Source: Kiritimatiellia bacterium
GTDB lineage: Bacteria; Verrucomicrobiota; Kiritimatiellia; JAAZAB01
Assembly (NCBI GenBank): GCA_040767085.1
Contig: JAXGPF010000003.1
Span: 352,001-416,000 of the forward strand
Length of the DNA: 64,000 bases
Direction: 5' to 3'
Made by a program: the position numbers and the translations under genes. Shown here piece after piece: positions 2,294-26,501 of the stretch (the stretch's first letter is position 1; each line of letters starts with the position of its first letter). The notes below the pieces were generated by a model. That model saw only the letters and a program-made list of their open reading frames with translations, was not told the DNA's origin and did not search any database.

Positions 2294-5080
2294 TTACGGC
2301 ACAGTCAATACCACCGGACCCACCCGGCCATACCCGGAGGCCGAAAGCCAGACGTACCAGCCGCCGCTGGCATCCACTACGGCCGGGTCCGCCCGCCCAT
2401 CTCCGTCGTAGTCCCCGGCCGCCGGCGCGCCCGCAATACCCAGGGCGTAAGGTCCGCCAGGCGCGTACCCGGACCGGGAAAACCATACATGCCAGTTCCC
2501 GCCGGCATCCGTCACCGCCGGGTCCGCCAGCCCATCCCCGTCGTAGTCCCCGGCCGCCGGCGCGCCCGCAACGCCCAGGTTGTACGGCCCGCCAGGCGTG
2601 TATCCGGATCGGGAAAACCATACATGCCAGCTCCCGCCCGCATCCACCACCGCCGGGTCCGCCAGCCCGTCCCCGTCGTAGTCCCCGGCCGCCGGCGCGC
2701 CCGCAACGCCCAGGTTGTACGGCCCGCCAGGCGCGTACCCGGATCGGGAAAACCATACATGCCAGCTCCCGCCCGCATCCACTACCGCCGGGTCTGCCAG
2801 CCCGTCCCCGTCGTAGTCCCCGGCCGCCGGCAGCCCCCCTGTCCCCAAGCCAACCGGGCCGCTGCGCGCATACCCGGCGCCGGCAAACCACACAAAGCAA
2901 TTGCCGGCTGCATCCATGGCGGCTGGATCGGTCCGACCGTCTCCGTCGTAATCGCCGGCCATCGGCGCATAATCCCACACGCGCACCTGGCATGCCACGG
3001 TGTTGGAAGAACTGATATTGATCAGGGTCGGCTCGGTCTCGCAAATCCATGTCACCATGCCGGTGCCGACGGCCATGACGCTCAAACTATCCAAACTGAT
3101 GGCCCGCACCACGGCCGCCGCGGCGTGTGTGCTCAGCCTGGCCGTGACCCGCCGTCCCGCAATCCCGCCGTGATGGACCGCCATGGCGTTGGCGTCAAAG
3201 CCGGGGCTTACCGTTATGGATTCGCGGTTGGTGATGACCGGCAGATCGTCCAGCCTGACGCAATGATAGCCGCCGAACCACAATGCTTCCTGCCCGGCCG
3301 CATTGGTGACAGCCCGCACGCTCCCGTCGCTGCGCGAAGTCAAGCCGGCCGCAAACGCCAGCTTATCGTCCACCGGCGCCAGGGTGATGCTGCCGATGCC
3401 CGACAGGGAAAGAATCCCATTGGATGCGCTGAGGATCAAACCGCTTGGCGAACCGGCCGCAAGGTTGTAATCGGAATACAGCAGGTTATCGGCCAGCCAG
3501 ATGGTTTCGCAGCGGTTCGACCAGGCGGCGGAAATAGCCGGCGGAGTATAGCGCGCGCCGTACAAATATTCGGCATACCCGCCGTACATCAGCCGGTTTT
3601 TATCCGTGCCATCGCAACCATAGGCAATGATTATGTCATGTCCGGCCCGATTGGTGAATGCCAGCTGCAGTTCCGGTTGGCCGGGAATGAAAAATCGCCC
3701 GTTGGCATGCGGACGGTAATTCGTCGTCGCCGCGGAATTGTTCTGGACGTTATGCACGCACGACAAGGAGCCGTTCGTCTCGGCGGTAAACCAATCCACC
3801 CCGTTCTTGGTCACGTAATATCCCGCGGCCGCCTGCAGGGCGGCGTAATCCAGGTTGGTTTCCGCCGGCGCCGGCATGGGCGGGATCGGCGGACGGTCCA
3901 GGCCGGCTTTTTCCTTCACCGCGTAAGCTAATACCTCGCGCACTACCGCCAGCGTCATGTTGTTGGCACAGTTGATGTTCACGAAAATGCCCAACTGCTG
4001 GTCCGGCAACACCTCCAACAAGGCCTCGAACGTGCTCGTGGACCCGTTTTTCGCCCAGGTCCGGCCGGCATAATTCAGCGCCGGATCGTCCACCGTGTCC
4101 AGCCCCAGCCCGGTCTTCAGATAATTATCAACGTCCAACGGCCCGGGCACGGTGTGCACCAGATGGAAAAGCGCATTGGTTGACAGATACCGGCTGCCGT
4201 TGAAAACGCCCTCCGCCAGGAGCATTTTGATTGCATTCGCCATGTCCAGCGGACGGGAATAAGCCCCGCCCGTGGCCGGCATGTTGGCCAGCATCAAGGG
4301 CGCGGGCGCGCCGTCCGCGCTGTATCCCACCGCCAGATTTTCCGCAACCGCGGCCTTGCCCGGCAGAAATGACGAATAAGGCATGTGCAACGGCCCAAAC
4401 ACGCGGTTTTCCGCGACGGCGGTATAATCCGCGCCAGCGTGTCGCGCGATGGCTTCGCCCACTATATTGAAGCCGCTGTTGCAATAACTGACAAACAGTC
4501 CCGGCGGATACAGGGGGTACGCCTCCCGGAAGTATTCAACCAGCCATCTGGTGTAGTCCGGCCAGTAGGGAGCATGTCCAAACGCCCTGTTAAAAATATC
4601 GCCGGGAATCCCGGAACGGTGATCCATCATGGCGCGTAAAGTCCAGGCGGCGGCTTGCCCGGCAAACCGCGGCAGCATGGAAAATTCCGCCACGTAATTC
4701 GTCACGTTGGCGTCAAGATCAAAAGCGCCTTCATCAACCAATTGCAGCGCCATGAAAGACGTCAGCAGCTTCGATACCGACCCGATCATCATGACGGTGT
4801 TGGTGGTGGCCGGTATGCCGCGCTCCAGGTCGGCATACCCGAACGCTTCGGCCCAGACCACTTCCTGGCTGTTCACCAGGGCAAGCGTCAGCCCGGGAAT
4901 GTTATGTTCCGCCATCAGGTTGGTTATATAGGCCCGGCCGGCAGCGATGGTGTTGGTTAGCCCGGCGCCCGCGGCGGAATGCCAGCACAAACACCCCGCC
5001 AGCCACACCACGGCCGGTTTTGATAAAACTGCCCGAACCGGCATACAATCTCTCCAATTTTTTCCAAATTGCATATTCAA
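2294..5080 (-). CDS. Secreted serine hydrolase (beta-lactamase class C/AmpC-like fold) with C-terminal DYDGDG (FG-GAP/VCBS-like) repeats
   Basis: SxxK (GSVSK), YxN (YCN), HRSG and a signal-peptide-like N-terminus. Five GDYDGDG repeats at the C-terminus. Confidence 0.85.
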   Translation of the reverse strand: MNMQFGKNWRDCMPVRAVLSKPAVVWLAGCLCWHSAAGAGLTNTIAAGRAYITNLMAEHNIPGLTLALVNSQEVVWAEAFGYADLERGIPATTNTVMMIGSVSKLLTSFMALQLVDEGAFDLDANVTNYVAEFSMLPRFAGQAAAWTLRAMMDHRSGIPGDIFNRAFGHAPYWPDYTRWLVEYFREAYPLYPPGLFVSYCNSGFNIVGEAIARHAGADYTAVAENRVFGPLHMPYSSFLPGKAAVAENLAVGYSADGAPAPLMLANMPATGGAYSRPLDMANAIKMLLAEGVFNGSRYLSTNALFHLVHTVPGPLDVDNYLKTGLGLDTVDDPALNYAGRTWAKNGSTSTFEALLEVLPDQQLGIFVNINCANNMTLAVVREVLAYAVKEKAGLDRPPIPPMPAPAETNLDYAALQAAAGYYVTKNGVDWFTAETNGSLSCVHNVQNNSAATTNYRPHANGRFFIPGQPELQLAFTNRAGHDIIIAYGCDGTDKNRLMYGGYAEYLYGARYTPPAISAAWSNRCETIWLADNLLYSDYNLAAGSPSGLILSASNGILSLSGIGSITLAPVDDKLAFAAGLTSRSDGSVRAVTNAAGQEALWFGGYHCVRLDDLPVITNRESITVSPGFDANAMAVHHGGIAGRRVTARLSTHAAAAVVRAISLDSLSVMAVGTGMVTWICETEPTLINISSSNTVACQVRVWDYAPMAGDYDGDGRTDPAAMDAAGNCFVWFAGAGYARSGPVGLGTGGLPAAGDYDGDGLADPAVVDAGGSWHVWFSRSGYAPGGPYNLGVAGAPAAGDYDGDGLADPAVVDAGGSWHVWFSRSGYTPGGPYNLGVAGAPAAGDYDGDGLADPAVTDAGGNWHVWFSRSGYAPGGPYALGIAGAPAAGDYDGDGRADPAVVDASGGWYVWLSASGYGRVGPVVLTVP
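2330..2965 (-). repeat. Intragenic 135-bp (45-aa) tandem repeat, about 5 copies
   Basis: The anchor CGTCGTA recurs at 2404, 2539, 2674, 2809 and 2944 (exact 135-nt period). The central copies are near-identical. Confidence 0.95.
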
Positions 5081-20596: not shown

Positions 20597-21550
20597 TCAT
20601 TGGTTATAACGTCCCCAGCGTTCCCGGGCGTTTTTCACTTCCAGATAATTTTCCCAAGGCGTATCCGCGAACACTTCCGAACTGGTGACCAGCACCAGCC
20701 CGCCGCCGGCCTTGGCCGATTCGAGGCAATACCGTGCGCTCTCGCGGATCGCCGCGAGCGGGCCGCGGTGCACCAGGTCGCATTGCACATTGCCGAACAA
20801 CGCCACAAGGTGTCCATACCGCCGCTTGACTTCGGCAATGTCCATGCCGGCCATGGGATCGATCGGGTTCAATCCATGGATGCCGCTGGCGACAATCGGC
20901 TCCAGCACAGGCGTCAGGTTGCCGTCGCTGTGAAATACAATCCAGGCGCCGGTATTTTTCAGGCAATTTACATGTTCGTTCAAATAAGGTTGAATGAATT
21001 CCGCGAAATGCGCCGGCGACAGGAACGGCCCGGGATTAAAGGCGATGTCATTGGCCAGAATCAGCAATTCGCTGCCGGCGTCCACGCACCGCCGCCCCCA
21101 GGCATTCGCCCGTGCCAGCCGCCGGCGCGCTTCCGTATGCACGCCGTCCGGCTCGTCGCAAAGCCGGTAACAGAATTCCTCCAGCCGGTTTCCTTCCGGA
21201 ATGTTGTGAATTCCGCCGCCGACCCAGGAACCGATCATAAACCGGCCGTCCACCCGGCGTCTCAGGCGGGCGACCAGGTCGAGATGCGCTTCGCCCTCAA
21301 ACGGAGCATACACCATGATTAGGGAATAATCCAGCGTTTCGGCAACCTGGATCAGATCATCCGCCGCCTGCGCCAGCAGGCGTTCACGCGCGGCTGCCGA
21401 AGCCGCCTGTTCAAAGTCGGCATTGGTGACGACCGGCCGGCCGGTAATATAATGGGCATTGGACAACAACCCGCCATACCACGGTACCATATCGTCCGGC
21501 TGTTCCAGCTTTAACGCCTTGACCAGGCGGGTATAACCGGGATGGCTCAT
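20597..21550 (-). CDS. Uroporphyrinogen decarboxylase/MtaA-CmuA family protein
   Basis: NDIAFN.GPFLSP..F.EFIQPY, FHSDGN, NPIDP.AGMD, GNV, GGG and ENY motifs. Confidence 0.85.
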   Translation of the reverse strand: MSHPGYTRLVKALKLEQPDDMVPWYGGLLSNAHYITGRPVVTNADFEQAASAAARERLLAQAADDLIQVAETLDYSLIMVYAPFEGEAHLDLVARLRRRVDGRFMIGSWVGGGIHNIPEGNRLEEFCYRLCDEPDGVHTEARRRLARANAWGRRCVDAGSELLILANDIAFNPGPFLSPAHFAEFIQPYLNEHVNCLKNTGAWIVFHSDGNLTPVLEPIVASGIHGLNPIDPMAGMDIAEVKRRYGHLVALFGNVQCDLVHRGPLAAIRESARYCLESAKAGGGLVLVTSSEVFADTPWENYLEVKNARERWGRYNQ

Positions 21551-21557
21551 GCTTCTT

Positions 21558-23030
21558 TCAAGCCTGCTTGACAAAAATCATGGAAAAGGCGCGCGCCGCC
21601 AATTCCGCCCGTTCATCCACCGCCCGCGGCGCATGTTCGTAAATTGAAAGGCTCCGCCGCCAATATTCCCGGCGGATCGCCGGGCGATCGGGATTCGGCG
21701 AGGACAATCGGGCAAACATGCGGGCAAACCACAGCAAATCTGACCGGTATTCCTCGGGCGACGGGAATAGCGGCAAATCGCAGCCGCGCATGTCCGCCTG
21801 TTCCAGATGCTCCGCGATTTTCAGGTACGCGCGATGCGCTTCCCCGGGCGCCCACTTGCGCCGCGGATAATGCCCCCAGCCCGGCACAACTTCAAAGGCT
21901 TCCAACAATTCCCCAAGCCTTTCATGGGCGGCTCCGAATACCCGCCGGCAGAACTCGCGCGAGACCAGGTCGGGATCAAGGTCGGGATTAATGGCGGCCT
22001 GGGCCGCGGCATACATGCTCAAATGGCTTAATTTGGGGCTCATGGTATAACTCATGGCGCCGTGATACGGCGCCACCGCGCGCTCTTCCCGCCGGCGGCT
22101 GAAAATCCGCGGCAGGCGCCAATGCGGATACACCACCAACTCCCCTTCCGCCACCGCGTAATCCCAACTGTTGATCCGGCGGAGTTGGGCGATCTCCCGA
22201 ACGTATTCACGGGCATCGCCGCCGACCGTCGGATCGGCGTCGGGACTGAACCCAAGGTTGATCCCCACCATCGCGTTCGCCGGGAATTCCGGGAGCCAGG
22301 CAATGAAATCCGCCATCGCCCGCCGCGCGCGCTCCGGCGTGCCATTCCAGATCTGGCAGGCGGCTCCATCCGCCGGCGGCAGGTCCTTCGACAGCATTTG
22401 CCAGGTGCCATCCCAATCGGGCACAAACCGCATGTCCTCTCCCCAACCCGCAAACGGCGCGCCCCAGGTGCCAATTTCCATGACTGCATCCGGATTTTTG
22501 TCCAGGGTAATTTCCGACAGGCGCAGGGCCAATTCGATGAAGGTGCGGTGATCACAGCCATTGCGCCGGCAACCGCCCGGATCGCCCGGGAAAATCCCCA
22601 CCATGTCCGCCCCGCTCAGGATTTCCGCCCAATGCGTCCAGAGTTGTTCGATCAGGGCGCGGTCCGCTGGCAGATTGGGACAGGCAAAATACCATTCCTG
22701 CCCGATGCAATTGGGAGTCAAGCCGTATTTCACCTGGAGCCCTGCCTGATGCGCAAGATCAATCACCGCCGGCATCAGCCGGGTAAATTCCGGGTAAATC
22801 CCGTCGCGCGCCAAAGCGGACTTGTAGATGGTCGGCTCCAGCCAGAACTCGAAACAGGTAAAGCCAAAGGCCTTGATCATCGCGAACAGCCGCCGGAACT
22901 CATCCATATCCCAATGCTGGCCGCCCCGCGGATGGACCATGTTGACATTCCAGGCATTCAACAGGTGCGACGCGAAATTGATGTAATACGCCCGATGCCG
23001 GAATGCCGGCGGATTGCTTTCATTATCCAT
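21558..23030 (-). CDS. Hypothetical protein, probable TIM-barrel (GH-like)
   Basis: 490-aa ORF, first gene of a co-oriented operon. Contains FPGDPGGC and a GF...EFW N-terminal pattern. No family recognised with certainty. Confidence 0.6.
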   Translation of the reverse strand: MDNESNPPAFRHRAYYINFASHLLNAWNVNMVHPRGGQHWDMDEFRRLFAMIKAFGFTCFEFWLEPTIYKSALARDGIYPEFTRLMPAVIDLAHQAGLQVKYGLTPNCIGQEWYFACPNLPADRALIEQLWTHWAEILSGADMVGIFPGDPGGCRRNGCDHRTFIELALRLSEITLDKNPDAVMEIGTWGAPFAGWGEDMRFVPDWDGTWQMLSKDLPPADGAACQIWNGTPERARRAMADFIAWLPEFPANAMVGINLGFSPDADPTVGGDAREYVREIAQLRRINSWDYAVAEGELVVYPHWRLPRIFSRRREERAVAPYHGAMSYTMSPKLSHLSMYAAAQAAINPDLDPDLVSREFCRRVFGAAHERLGELLEAFEVVPGWGHYPRRKWAPGEAHRAYLKIAEHLEQADMRGCDLPLFPSPEEYRSDLLWFARMFARLSSPNPDRPAIRREYWRRSLSIYEHAPRAVDERAELAARAFSMIFVKQA

Positions 23031-23042
23031 AATGCATGCTTT

Positions 23043-23188
23043 GGAATAGAGGGAATAGGGGGAATAGGGTCAGTCCGGGGAATAGGGTCAGTCCGAGTCC
23101 GGGGAATAGGGTCAGTCCGTGATTATTGGCATTTTTTATTTGACCGGGGAATAGGGTCAGTCCGTGATTATTGGCATTTTTTATTTGA
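23043..23188. repeat. Ladder of progressively longer direct copies of the Y1-element left end
   Basis: GGAATAG (23043), GGGAATAGGG (23051), GGAATAGGGTCAGTCC (23061), a 24-mer at 23077, and two identical 43-mers at 23101-23143 and 23146-23188. Confidence 0.9.
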
Positions 23189-24233
23189 TTGTCAAGAGAG
23201 TTGATGTTAAAAATTATTCATGCCAAGACAACCAAGAATCGAATACGCAGGGGCTCTGTATCACATTATGAGCCGTGGCGACCGCGGGGAGGCCATTTTC
23301 GATGATGACATCGATCGTCATCAGTTTCTCAAGACTCTGGGCGAAACATGTGGCCGGACAGGATGGATAGTGCATGCCTATGTATTGATGCAGAACCATT
23401 TTCATTTACTGCTGGAGACACCTGCTGCCAATTTGGTGGTGGGGATGAAATGGTGTTTGAGCACTTACACCCTGCGTTATAATGGTCGACATCAGCGGCG
23501 TGGGCATGTTTTTCAAGGCCGGTACAAGGCGGTGATGATCGACCCGGAAGAATTCGGATTCACTGCCCGTGTCAGCACGTATATTCATCTTAATCCGCTG
23601 CGGGCAGGGTTGGAGAACAGAGCCGGCAAGTATATTTGGGGCAGCTTGCCGGCGTATCTGGGACGCGCAATGCCTCCAGCATGGCTGGAACTGGAGCGTG
23701 TATACGGGAGTGTAGAGATTGACAGCCATAGCCGCTTGGCGGGGCGTGCATACGGCCGATACCTGGATCGTGTGTGGAGGATTGACACAAGGCACAAGGA
23801 TCAGGGAGATACATGGGAATGTTTACGCCGCGGCTGGTGTATTGGTGATGGCGCTTTTCGAGAACGTTTGTTAAAAGCCATTGGCAAAAAAGTTGCAAGA
23901 GCTCGGAGGGAAACATACGGCGGAGGAGCCAAGCGAGCGCATGATGATCGGAATGCTTCAATAATTATTCAAGCTGGATTATCCGCTCTCGGATTGAAGA
24001 GCAAAGAGCTTGTGATTTTACGCAAAAGAGACAAACGCAAGCAAGTGTTGGCCTGGTGGTTAAACCGGCATACAAGCGCAGAGAACGAATGGATCAGCCA
24101 ACAACTGCATATGGGACACAGAACTGCGGTATCGAAAGCGTCAAAAGCCGTTGCAGACGGCATTGATCCTGAGCTTAACAAATTGCGGCAGTTGTTGGAA
24201 AACACCAAGAATCACGGACTGACCCCTACTCCC
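23146..24233 (+). mobile_element. Y1 (HUH) transposase element bounded by about 29-bp imperfect inverted repeats
   Basis: Left end GGGAATAGGGTCAGTCCGTGATTATTGG versus reverse complement of 24205-24233, GGGAGTAGGGGTCAGTCCGTGATTCTTGG. Visibly lower GC than the flanks. Confidence 0.75.
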
Positions 24234-24275
24234 TCTTCCGATGGTGGCCCTGTGTTTCATGGAACATGCCATTGA
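23220..24275 (+). CDS. Y1_Tnp/RAYT-like HUH transposase with C-terminal HTH-like extension
   Basis: MPR.PR....GALYH...RG, AYVLMQNHFHLL (HUH), RRGHVFQGRYK and YIHLNP. The ORF reads through the right inverted repeat. Confidence 0.9.
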   Translation: MPRQPRIEYAGALYHIMSRGDRGEAIFDDDIDRHQFLKTLGETCGRTGWIVHAYVLMQNHFHLLLETPAANLVVGMKWCLSTYTLRYNGRHQRRGHVFQGRYKAVMIDPEEFGFTARVSTYIHLNPLRAGLENRAGKYIWGSLPAYLGRAMPPAWLELERVYGSVEIDSHSRLAGRAYGRYLDRVWRIDTRHKDQGDTWECLRRGWCIGDGAFRERLLKAIGKKVARARRETYGGGAKRAHDDRNASIIIQAGLSALGLKSKELVILRKRDKRKQVLAWWLNRHTSAENEWISQQLHMGHRTAVSKASKAVADGIDPELNKLRQLLENTKNHGLTPTPSSDGGPVFHGTCH

Positions 24276-24513
24276 GTTCGGGGCGCTGGACGGCATGCCG
24301 GTGCATACGCTTTTTGCCATTGTCAGCCCGACTGTCACCGCGCATTTGAACCTTTTATCACGCCTGGCGTTTGCGCTCCGGCACCCGGGATTTTCCAAAA
24401 CCATCGCGCAGCAGGGTTCCCGGGATGAAATTCTCGAAAGCGCCCGCGAAATTGACCGGCTTTTGCTCAGCCGCGCCCCGGACAAGGCCGGGACGGGAGG
24501 CGACGCGCCATGA
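24234..24513 (+). pseudogene. 5'-truncated PTS EIIA (PtsN-like, EIIA-2) gene
   Basis: ALCF.EHAIEFGALDG.PVHTLF.IVSPT...HL.LLSRLA is the C-terminal half of EIIA-2. The N-terminal part with the phospho-His is absent and abuts the Y1 right end. Confidence 0.75.
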
Positions 24514-26501
24514 GGCTTTTGGTTTGCGCATTGGCCGTCATGTTTGCCGGGGCATTCCTCTGCCTGGCTGCCATCGGCCGGCCGCGCACAGCCCGGGTGC
24601 TGGGTCCGGCAATCACGGTGATCGGCTGCCTGTGCGGACTGGTTCCGGTTTTCATGGCGCTGGCGGGTATAAACATCCCGCCATTGCGCATCCCCTGGAA
24701 CATGCCCTGCGGGTCCATCTCGCTGGAATTGGATGCATTGGCCGCCATCTTCGCCCTGCCTATACTCGTATTATGCTCCCTATCAGCTATTTACGGCGCA
24801 GAATATCTGCGGTCGTTCGAAACCCGGCGGGATTTGGCGGTTACATGGTTCTTTTTTAACCTGCTGGCCGGCAGCATGCTGTTGGTGGTGGTGGCCCGCA
24901 ATGCCATGTTATTCCTGCTGGCATGGGAAACCATGTCGCTTGCCTCGTTCTTCCTGGTTGCATTTGAAAATGAGCGGGAAAACGCACGGCGCGCCGGCTG
25001 GACTTACCTGGTCGCAACCCATCTGGGCACGGCTTTGCTGCTGCTGATGTTTGCCCTGCTGGGCCGCCACGGCGGCACTTTGGATTTTAATGGATTTGCC
25101 GGCGCGGGCGCCGTTCCGGGATTGGCGACTGCGGTTTTTCTGCTGGCGCTGGCCGGATTCGGGACCAAGGCCGGCTTCATTCCCCTGCATGTCTGGCTGC
25201 CGGAAGCCCATCCCGCGGCGCCATCGCATGTTTCCGCGGTGATGAGCGGCGTGATGATCAAGACCGGCATCTACGGATTGCTGCGCACATTGACTTTTAT
25301 CGGGGCGCCGCCGCCGTGGTGGGGCTGGACCCTGGTAGGTGTGGGCGCCGTCTCCGGCATCCTGGGCGTTTTACTGGCGCTGGCGCAACACGACTTGAAA
25401 CGGCTTTTGGCCTATCACAGCGTGGAAAACATCGGCATCATCACCCTGGGAACGGGGATCGGCCTTCTGGGAGTAAGCTATGCCAGCCCAACCATGGCCT
25501 TCCTGGGATTTGCCGGCAGCCTGCTCCATGTCATCAATCACGCCCTTTTCAAGGGCCTGCTGTTTTTAAGCGCCGGGTCGGTGCTGCATGCTGCCGGCAC
25601 CCGGGAAATTGACCGGCTCGGCGGCCTGCTCAAGTCCATGCCGGTCACTGGCGGCGTTTTCCTGGTAGGTTCCGCCGCCATCTGCGGCCTGCCGCCGCTC
25701 AACGGATTTGTCAGCGAGTTCCTGATTTATCTGGGCGCATTGTGGGCGCTGGTTAAAACAGCGCAACTGCCCGTAGGGGCGGCGGGCGCAGGCGTGGTGG
25801 TGCTGGCCGCGCTGGCGCTGATTGGCGGCCTGGCGGTGGCCTGTTTTACCAAAGCTTTTGGCGTGATTTTTCTCGGCGAAGCGCGCGATCCCGCCGCCGC
25901 CCGGGCGCACGAATCGCCGGCCGCCATGCGTATCCCCATGGTGACCCTGGCCGGACTGTGCTGCCTCGTCGGCTGCTCCGCCCCGTTCCTGCCGGCGCTG
26001 TTGCAACCGGCGGTTGCCATCCTTGCCCCCGGCACGGCGGCCGCGCCGGCGGCGTCAGGCTGGCCCGGCTTAGCCCTGGCAGCCATTCCGGCCATCACCC
26101 TGGGCGCCGCGCTGCTGGCCTGGCTATGCCTGCGCATACGTAAAAGCCTGCTGGCAACCCAGCCGGCGGGCCAGGCGGTCACCTGGGATTGCGGCTATGC
26201 CGCGCCGGCGCCGCGCATGCAATACACCGCCTCGTCGTTTGCCGATCCCATTACGCGGGTTTTCAGGCCGTTTTTGCGCACCCGTTTCCATAGCCAGCCG
26301 CCGGCCGGACTTTTCCCGGATGCGGCGTCGCTGGCGAGCCATACGCCCGATTTTTTCCATGAGCGGATTTACCGTTATTTATTCATGCGGGCGGAGAGCG
26401 TGCTGGCGCGGTTCCGCCTGTTTCAACATGGCCGGTTGAATCTCTATATTTTATACATCATGCTGGCGCTGCTTGGCCTGCTGGCATGGAAGTTGGTCTG
26501 A
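24510..26501 (+). CDS. hyfB: Hydrogenase-4 component B-like proton-translocating antiporter subunit
   Basis: WETMSL, KAG..PLHVWLPEAHPAAPSHVSA, LLAYHSVENIG and TWDCGY...RMQYT motifs; multiple TM helices. Confidence 0.9.
   Translation: MRLLVCALAVMFAGAFLCLAAIGRPRTARVLGPAITVIGCLCGLVPVFMALAGINIPPLRIPWNMPCGSISLELDALAAIFALPILVLCSLSAIYGAEYLRSFETRRDLAVTWFFFNLLAGSMLLVVVARNAMLFLLAWETMSLASFFLVAFENERENARRAGWTYLVATHLGTALLLLMFALLGRHGGTLDFNGFAGAGAVPGLATAVFLLALAGFGTKAGFIPLHVWLPEAHPAAPSHVSAVMSGVMIKTGIYGLLRTLTFIGAPPPWWGWTLVGVGAVSGILGVLLALAQHDLKRLLAYHSVENIGIITLGTGIGLLGVSYASPTMAFLGFAGSLLHVINHALFKGLLFLSAGSVLHAAGTREIDRLGGLLKSMPVTGGVFLVGSAAICGLPPLNGFVSEFLIYLGALWALVKTAQLPVGAAGAGVVVLAALALIGGLAVACFTKAFGVIFLGEARDPAAARAHESPAAMRIPMVTLAGLCCLVGCSAPFLPALLQPAVAILAPGTAAAPAASGWPGLALAAIPAITLGAALLAWLCLRIRKSLLATQPAGQAVTWDCGYAAPAPRMQYTASSFADPITRVFRPFLRTRFHSQPPAGLFPDAASLASHTPDFFHERIYRYLFMRAESVLARFRLFQHGRLNLYILYIMLALLGLLAWKLV

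Follow-up and report, generated by a model that had tools for sequence, protein, structure and literature searches.

A recurrent ladder of partial terminus copies at the ends of TIRtrons, seen at a locus of a Kiritimatiellia bacterium and in its relatives

RAYT-like genes that lie between long inverted repeats were named TIRtrons and their products TIRYTs by Di Nocera, De Gregorio and Rocco (2013; PMC3733652), and the tips of these repeats share the motif GGGGWSAS according to the accessible part of that paper. Most TIRYTs were later assigned to subclass 2.1 of the TnpA-Y1 proteins, a subclass with a Bac_DnaA_C-, HTH_23- or HTH_28-like C-terminal extension and without REPs nearby (Quentin, Siguier, Chandler and Fichant 2018; PMC6006769, accessible part). 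In the literature that we searched the family name appears in these two papers only, and the accessible text of neither reports any enzymology of TIRYTs. Indeed, the family is very large (more than 5000 proteins) and has been little studied since it was named in 2013, while it raises the question of how a Y1 HUH enzyme handles plain inverted repeats. Y1 HUH enzymes normally require single-stranded hairpins. Rearrangements that have one endpoint at the nick site of a rolling-circle Rep are known from plasmid and phage origins. The REP transposases act on single strands, which they cleave on the 5' or the 3' side of the recognition element. In doing so they become linked to the DNA through a 5'-phosphotyrosine, and any supplied oligonucleotide with a 3'-OH can resolve this link (PMC8266576, accessible part). 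In addition, insertions of Replitron-1 bear extra sequence of variable length at one end, the so-called 'fuzzy ends' (PMC10288648, accessible part).

The locus studied here lies in a stretch of 64,000 nucleotides (the window). Judged from its sequence features, it is a TIRtron that encodes a TIRYT, probably of TnpA-Y1 subclass 2.1, and thus an element of a kind that has been described. The element is about 1.2 kb long, holds a single gene and resembles an insertion sequence. The gene (23220-24275, plus strand; an ORF of 351 aa) was identified by the Pfam domain Y1_Tnp (E 4.9e-8), by the alignment of its homologues and by fold models. With two NCBIfam models the product stayed below the cut-off, scoring 52.9 bits for REP_Tyr_transpos (cut-off 80) and 12.6 bits for IS200 (cut-off 55). 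In an alignment of 26 sequences His60, His62 and Tyr121 are invariant, residues 60-62 forming the His-x-His motif. A word-index search for relatives, in which 8000 candidates were scored, gave 5018 at E<=0.001, and the majority of these relatives measure around 337 aa. The sequence-only reading had noted that there are Y1 subfamilies with a C-terminal extension and associated inverted repeats; these exist, and correspond to the TIRYTs and TIRtrons of subclass 2.1.

Three parts are predicted for the protein: the Y1 HUH domain at the N terminus, a helical stretch in the middle and, at about residues 235-332, a helix-turn-helix that resembles domain IV of DnaA. For an AlphaFold model based on the 26-sequence alignment (mean pLDDT 82.5) the top match among solved structures was the E. 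coli REP transposase with a REP hairpin (4er8; E 4.5e-6, TM 0.71 on the target), followed by the transposases of IS200, ISDra2 and IS608. The C-terminal 100 residues were modelled on their own, using 24 sequences (pLDDT 88.6). In the fold search with this model ranks 1-7 were taken by DnaA-domain-IV chains (3pvp, 8btg, 1j1v, 2hcb), with a TM of 0.61-0.70, an rmsd of 2.8-3.6 Å over 88-96 aligned columns and E-values of 0.03-1.4; further DnaA-domain-IV entries stood at rank 11 (3r8f) and rank 28 (1l8q). None of the 26 family members matched Pfam Bac_DnaA_C, HTH_23 or HTH_28 at E<=1, and sequence-profile searches of the PDB returned a designed protein and weak chance matches, with no DnaA among them. 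The modelled likeness of the C-terminal part to DnaA is visible in the fold alone, and there with weak E-values.

The homologues in the 26-sequence alignment terminate in ...P-x-I-S/T-D, directly followed by the stop. In the window the frame leaves that of the homologues at an AAAA run (24199-24202; the affected stretch being 24199-24222, plus strand). The homologues' frame (24202-24222) ends ...TPRITD at a TGA (24220-24222) inside the tip motif of the right repeat, and the assembled ORF continues past this repeat into the flank, to 24275. The change of frame may be a genuine frameshift or a homopolymer error, and with its position at the extreme 3' end of the gene it may have left the window copy impaired.

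The gene is enclosed by an inverted repeat of 27 nt with 89% identity (23109-23135 or 23154-23180 versus 24199-24225), which is lengthened to 34/35 nt by a gapped local alignment. The innermost full left terminal repeat covers 23148-23180 (plus strand), and its tip GGGTCAG (23154-23160) follows a G-rich 'leader'. The right terminal repeat covers 24199-24233 (minus strand), with the tip GGGGTCAG read from 24225 to 24218 on that strand. Both tips fit GGGGWSAS, the left one having three G and an A instead of the fourth G. The outer limit of the right repeat falls somewhere within 24226-24239, a stretch that can be read either as outer repeat or as codons of the EIIA gene described below. The 16-nt core of the repeat occurs three times in the window, every time at the element, with 0.44 occurrences expected. 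When the two ends, each on both strands, and the ladder were folded as single-stranded DNA, they did no better than shuffled sequences (z +0.03 to +1.25); therefore the hairpins that define IS200/IS605 elements or REPs are not present here. Thus, the sequence-only reading was right in describing a Y1 HUH gene with inverted-repeat ends and without subterminal hairpins: the gene has the Y1_Tnp domain and the 27-nt repeat, and its ends lack better-than-shuffled folds. Subterminal hairpins and REP-like palindromes were both ruled out by this comparison. Within 21000-26000 no Rfam family was found, and PADLOC found no system.

A weak promoter-like site (9/12) directly precedes the start codon of the transposase gene (23189-23217, plus strand). 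A near-consensus site (11/12: TTGACA, 17 nt, AATAAT) at 23195-23167 on the minus strand is directed outward, through the ladder toward the intact gene that starts at 23030, and has its second hexamer within the repeat. The promoter scan yielded 2 sites where 1.4 are expected in shuffles, which is not significant. In many repeats of the relatives (see below) both arms carry TTGACA, or a near match, some 15-25 nt from the tip. Judged by its position, this inner-repeat TTGACA might serve as the -35 box of the gene on the left and, on the right, point inward on the antisense strand.

The right end of the element is joined to the last 94 codons of a gene for a 238-aa HTH_17 plus PTS EIIA-2 protein, which is cut at this end (24229-24513, plus strand); the corresponding ORF (24241-24513) has 90 codons. 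Residues 145-238 of the closest full-length EIIA relative, which is 87% identical, are matched at 24229-24510, and the first 144 codons have no convincing match anywhere in the window. Because these 144 codons are absent from the window, the left flank can be considered foreign to the EIIA gene. The sequence indicates that the element interrupts a gene of the PTS EIIA type and that the DNA on its left would not be the original neighbour. This suggests that DNA was deleted or rearranged here, the left tip being one of the endpoints. The gene on that side (21558-23030, minus strand; 490 aa, no Pfam family) is intact, being full length compared to relatives of 480-504 aa, and starts 12 bp from the outermost rung of the ladder.

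The ladder itself consists of six same-orientation copies of the left terminus within 23043-23188, 146 bp in all. On the plus strand GGAATAG is found at 23043, 23052, 23061, 23079, 23103 and 23148, i.e. in steps of 9, 9, 18, 24 and 45. The five partial copies (23043-23147, plus strand) are built of nested exact tandem duplications of 9, 18, 24 and 45 bp, and their exact prefix identity to the innermost full copy amounts to 7, 9, 17, 17 and 41 nt. The lengths of 7, 10, 16, 24, 43 and 43 nt given in the sequence-only reading described the pattern correctly and need replacement by these counts. Counted from the first G of GGGTCA, the rungs measure 11, 11 and 35 nt. Tandem Repeats Finder reported periods of 18, 24 and 45 with 100% identity and a period of 9 with 69%. 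When the exact tandem duplications of 45, 24, 18 and 9 bp are stripped in that order, a single left end remains. Moreover, the duplications were successive, because the 24-bp unit spans the junction created by the 18-bp event. The start of the unit is not strictly fixed, as the 24-bp and 45-bp units start 5 and 2 nt farther outward than the 18-bp unit. The ladder in the window is real, as confirmed from the assembled sequence.

A profile scan of genome contigs with the alignment gave at least 80 loci with 32-56% identity, and the listed loci belong mostly to Verrucomicrobiota and Kiritimatiellia, with some proteobacteria. Inverted repeats were searched by local alignment of each upstream region to the reverse complement of the 3' region of the gene. 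Most of the 80 listed loci have such a repeat, which begins at a G run and stops 20-60 nt before the start codon, its right-side partner overlapping or adjoining the stop codon. Of the 80 listed loci, 70 have the tip GGGTCA in forward orientation in the 300 nt before the start codon and 52 have it mirrored at the right end; the latter number is low partly since the anchor does not reach far enough in those proteobacterial proteins that are shorter. At least two tips oriented like the terminus next to them occur on the left in 20, on the right in 11 and at either end in 27 of these 80 loci, while 10 loci have at least three. None of the 80 has two or more tips that face the other way. The background is 0.088 tips per 300 nt per strand (determined on 333,517 nt). 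Exact tandem duplications with a period of 9-80 are present on the left in 20 of the 72 zones and on the right in 14 of the 78, and in all they affect 30 of the 80 listed loci. In control zones, placed 600 nt or more away, 16 of 744 have one, and some of these hits are themselves solo-end clusters; 50 of the 80 have no exact duplication at the tip. The ladder is a real and recurrent signature of the family, found in about one third of the listed relatives. The homologues had been named in advance as the place where the sequence-only reading could fail, and among them inverted repeats as well as nested copies of the ends recur.

The clearest arrays contain 11 (L021), 8 (L027), 6 (L049), 5 (L074) and 4 (L072) tips. 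Two generalizations of the sequence-only reading did not survive the comparison. The ladder is not confined to one end, considering the right-end arrays of four tips in L059 and L042 and of three in L018, and the arrays at both ends of L001 and L016. Nor is stepwise growth of the rungs a rule: in L027, L001 and L074 the order is non-monotonic. Because other ladders are unordered by length, the monotonic growth in the window is a coincidence of one locus. At the right end of L001, which is the closest relative among the matches listed (56% identity), rungs of 51 and 29 nt, the shorter one outward, mirror the left end of the window element.

The spread of the arrays bears on two alternative explanations. 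The first is an assembly artefact at a short tandem repeat, considering that the window is known from its assembly alone and that many relatives are metagenome bins. However, the pattern is present in 30 of the 80 listed independent assemblies and the window ladder measures just 146 bp. A 14-nt rung is found at the left tip of L081, a finished plasmid of a culture-collection isolate, and a ladder at the right end of L059, an isolate genome; a pure metagenome-assembly artefact is therefore disfavoured, and we regard this explanation as barely credible. The plasmid collection that includes L081 yielded distant relatives only, none of which covers 80% of the query. The second alternative is that the repeated tips are selected sites, similar to iterons or DnaA boxes, at which the C-terminal domain would bind to regulate the gene or the element. 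This would agree with the predicted DnaA-domain-IV-like fold of that domain and with the position of the left arrays just upstream of the gene. Nevertheless, the length and number of the rungs differ by locus, arrays are also found downstream, at the right end, many rungs are cut within the motif, and 50 of the 80 listed loci have no array at all. We consider selection for binding very unlikely as the origin of the ladders.

Within the arrays the outer boundary of the units is constant and the inner boundary is variable. Each unit opens with a leader of 4-13 nt outside the G run, which is the same within an array and different between loci. In L021 (three sites) and L012 (four sites) the copies at separate sites of a contig have different flanks but an identical leader, and therefore the leader is part of the repeated unit there, with the rungs starting at its terminus. 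Among the 53 other loci with both ends located, the inverted repeat extends at least 3 nt outward of the G run in 22 and 0 nt in 17; at many loci the inverted repeat by itself does not demonstrate that the leader belongs to the element. For the 63 listed units outside the window, a list that includes some widely spaced pairs that are no ladders, the match counted from the first G of GGGTCA is 6 nt in 27 cases and 7 nt in another 17; 5 units match over 8 nt and the other 14 over 12-52 nt. The commonest rung in the relatives ends directly past the motif; the rungs in the window are longer.

The junctions were analyzed in 42 exact duplications, all with a unit that contains a G run or tip; three events of the window and L081 are among them. 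Microhomology was 0 nt in 23 of them, 1 nt in 8, 2 nt in 7 and at least 3 nt in 4, which is close to the calculated chance fractions of 0.56, 0.28, 0.11 and 0.05, respectively. Because the microhomology is near chance, the joins are blunt and not of the repeat-guided type expected from slippage. By eye, no common dinucleotide was seen at the starts of the rungs and no common target at the insertion junctions. These numbers weigh on the explanation that the arrays arose independently of the transposase, through replication slippage or template switching at a sequence that is G-rich, protein-bound or difficult. Two observations would suit that explanation: the 9-bp unit in the window is flanked by two G runs, and arrays once formed can expand by unequal pairing, identical units being present three to four times in L021 and L027. 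Yet besides the lack of excess microhomology among the 42 duplications, the arrays occur at tips with very different leaders, in the opposite orientation at none of the 80 listed loci, and at least eightfold more rarely in the control zones. Given the microhomology count slippage is unlikely to be the main cause, and as an account of the ladders it seems to us quite improbable.

On balance we favour the reading that the ladder is a by-product of the TIRYT acting on its own end by nicking, extension and resealing, where the chemistry of nicking and resealing is drawn from the REP transposases by analogy only. The TIRYT would sit on the repeat and nick one strand at the outer terminus. The end of the element would thereby be held through a 5'-phosphotyrosyl link, and the flank would be left with a free 3'-OH, which a host polymerase would elongate by a few to a few tens of nucleotides and in this way re-copy the terminus. 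The covalently held 5' end would then be rejoined to the new 3'-OH. Replication would then fix a blunt tandem duplication that reaches from the terminus to the point where synthesis stopped, and in repeated cycles the rungs would pile up on the outer side of the active end. Synthesis would be blocked by protein bound to the inner repeat, such that most rungs in the relatives would stop just past the motif. According to the sequence-only reading, the ladder may be the trace of nicking and strand transfer or of abortive replication; we infer the same, as this would fit blunt junctions and an outer boundary that is fixed where the inner one varies. The ladder probably marks where the enzyme cuts and reseals the DNA. 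A more far-reaching reading, in which TIRYTs would not work by peel-and-paste and would be origin-like nickases that a DnaA-type domain keeps on their inverted repeats in duplex form and that are coupled to DNA synthesis at the two ends, with the ladders as fossils of nicking, priming and resealing, is put forward tentatively and we hold it to be rather doubtful.

The main rival to nicking and resealing is self-targeted insertion into a resident tip, preferably just 3' of the motif, followed by recombination between the tandem copies that leaves a rung behind. The product would be identical, with the outer boundary fixed at the terminus and the inner one variable. TIRtrons do insert into one another (L045, L048 and L062), foreign solo ends adjoin ladders (L016), and the strong mode of truncation directly after GGGGTC/A/G could represent a target preference. 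REP transposases cleave both 5' and 3' of the recognition element (PMC8266576, accessible part). However, a tblastn search of the 80 listed loci detected no second full-length copy beside any gene, and the fragments adjacent to three of the elements belong to a different subfamily and end in the coding region (codons 78-108) instead of at a tip. Moreover, each rung would take two rare events, and the rungs that are cut within the leader or the G run are poorly explained as targets. We judge self-targeting unlikely.

Several further arrangements were noted in the contigs of the relatives. In L045, L048 and L062 a TIRtron lies within the gene of another TIRtron, each bearing its own ladders, and fragments of the second TIRYT gene directly abut the full element (4063-4371, 3001-3324 and 4-222, respectively), being cut at codons 78-108; no shared target sequence was seen by eye at these junctions. 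Solo left ends with short ladders are found 1-4 kb from the gene in L021 (2805-2934, 4932-4958 and 6955), L012 (1876-1935 and 2499) and L078 (1314-1388), with no TIRYT gene after them. These solo ends may be non-autonomous derivatives or the beginning of a dispersed repeat family. In the Acidobacteriota bin L033 the gene is flanked by doublets (2878-2991 and 4010-4138), each consisting of two inverted copies of the terminus some 115-130 nt apart; with their position on both sides of the gene they resemble the REPINs that flank RAYT genes. Finally, 17 of the 80 listed loci (table count) have a contig end in the 460 nt before the start codon, and the contigs of L014, L017 and L018 scarcely exceed the length of the element, which suggests that assemblies break at the ends of TIRtrons. 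Along with the nested insertions and the position of the window element in the EIIA gene, such contig ends are indirect evidence that the element may be mobile.

The ladders provide a natural readout of a family of enzymes, in that the constant outer boundary, the blunt junctions and the preferred stop after GGGGWSAS predict a cut and a protected stretch. If they indeed result from nicking, priming and resealing, the starts of the rungs would map the site of cleavage and their ends the footprint of the protein, both at nucleotide resolution, and the arrays might represent the first step from transposon ends to dispersed repeat families. For genome annotation, the ladders explain odd short tandem repeats next to 'transposase' genes in the PVC-group genomes and flag points where assemblies break. 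Nested or partial copies of the terminus find no mention in the accessible parts of PMC3733652 and PMC6006769, nor did other literature searches return any; words that start with 'duplicat' and 'truncated' are absent from the accessible text of the former. A search of the literature for the motif string gave, among the matches listed, primer-type matches in unrelated papers.

With the IS200/IS605 elements (IS608, ISDra2) the window element shares the Y1 HUH catalytic domain and the lack of an obvious target-site duplication. In those elements the left and right ends are asymmetric and carry guide sequences as well as subterminal hairpins, whereas the ends here are inverted repeats free of hairpins. 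As in the Replitrons and the rearrangements at rolling-circle Rep sites, one endpoint would be set by the nick of an HUH enzyme and the other is variable. However, the enzymes of these systems are of the Rep type, the elements and plasmids concerned are unrelated, and no ladder of truncated termini is described for them in the accessible part of the source. The REPtrons with their RAYT are closer, as the E. coli TnpA-REP (4er8) represents the nearest solved fold and is likewise encoded by a lone Y1 gene between inverted recognition sequences. Unlike these, the window element has no palindromic REP hairpin and no dispersed copies in the window, and its protein has an extra, predicted DnaA-like domain; flanking GTAG-tagged REP palindromes in many dispersed copies, the feature that marks a REPtron, were not found in the 64-kb window. 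The resemblance to the TIRtrons extends to the REP-transposase-like Y1 domain with a predicted C-terminal helix-turn-helix, the long terminal inverted repeats without REP hairpins, the GGGGWSAS tip and the overlap of the right repeat with the 3' end of the gene. The host fits as well, considering that TIRtrons occur in bacteria of the PVC group and in proteobacteria. From the TIRtrons as described in the accessible parts of the two papers the window element differs by its nested truncated terminal copies, by the three G of its left tip and by the missing score for Bac_DnaA_C. The TIRtron/TIRYT family itself is known; what seems to be new is the recurrent ladder at the ends of its members.
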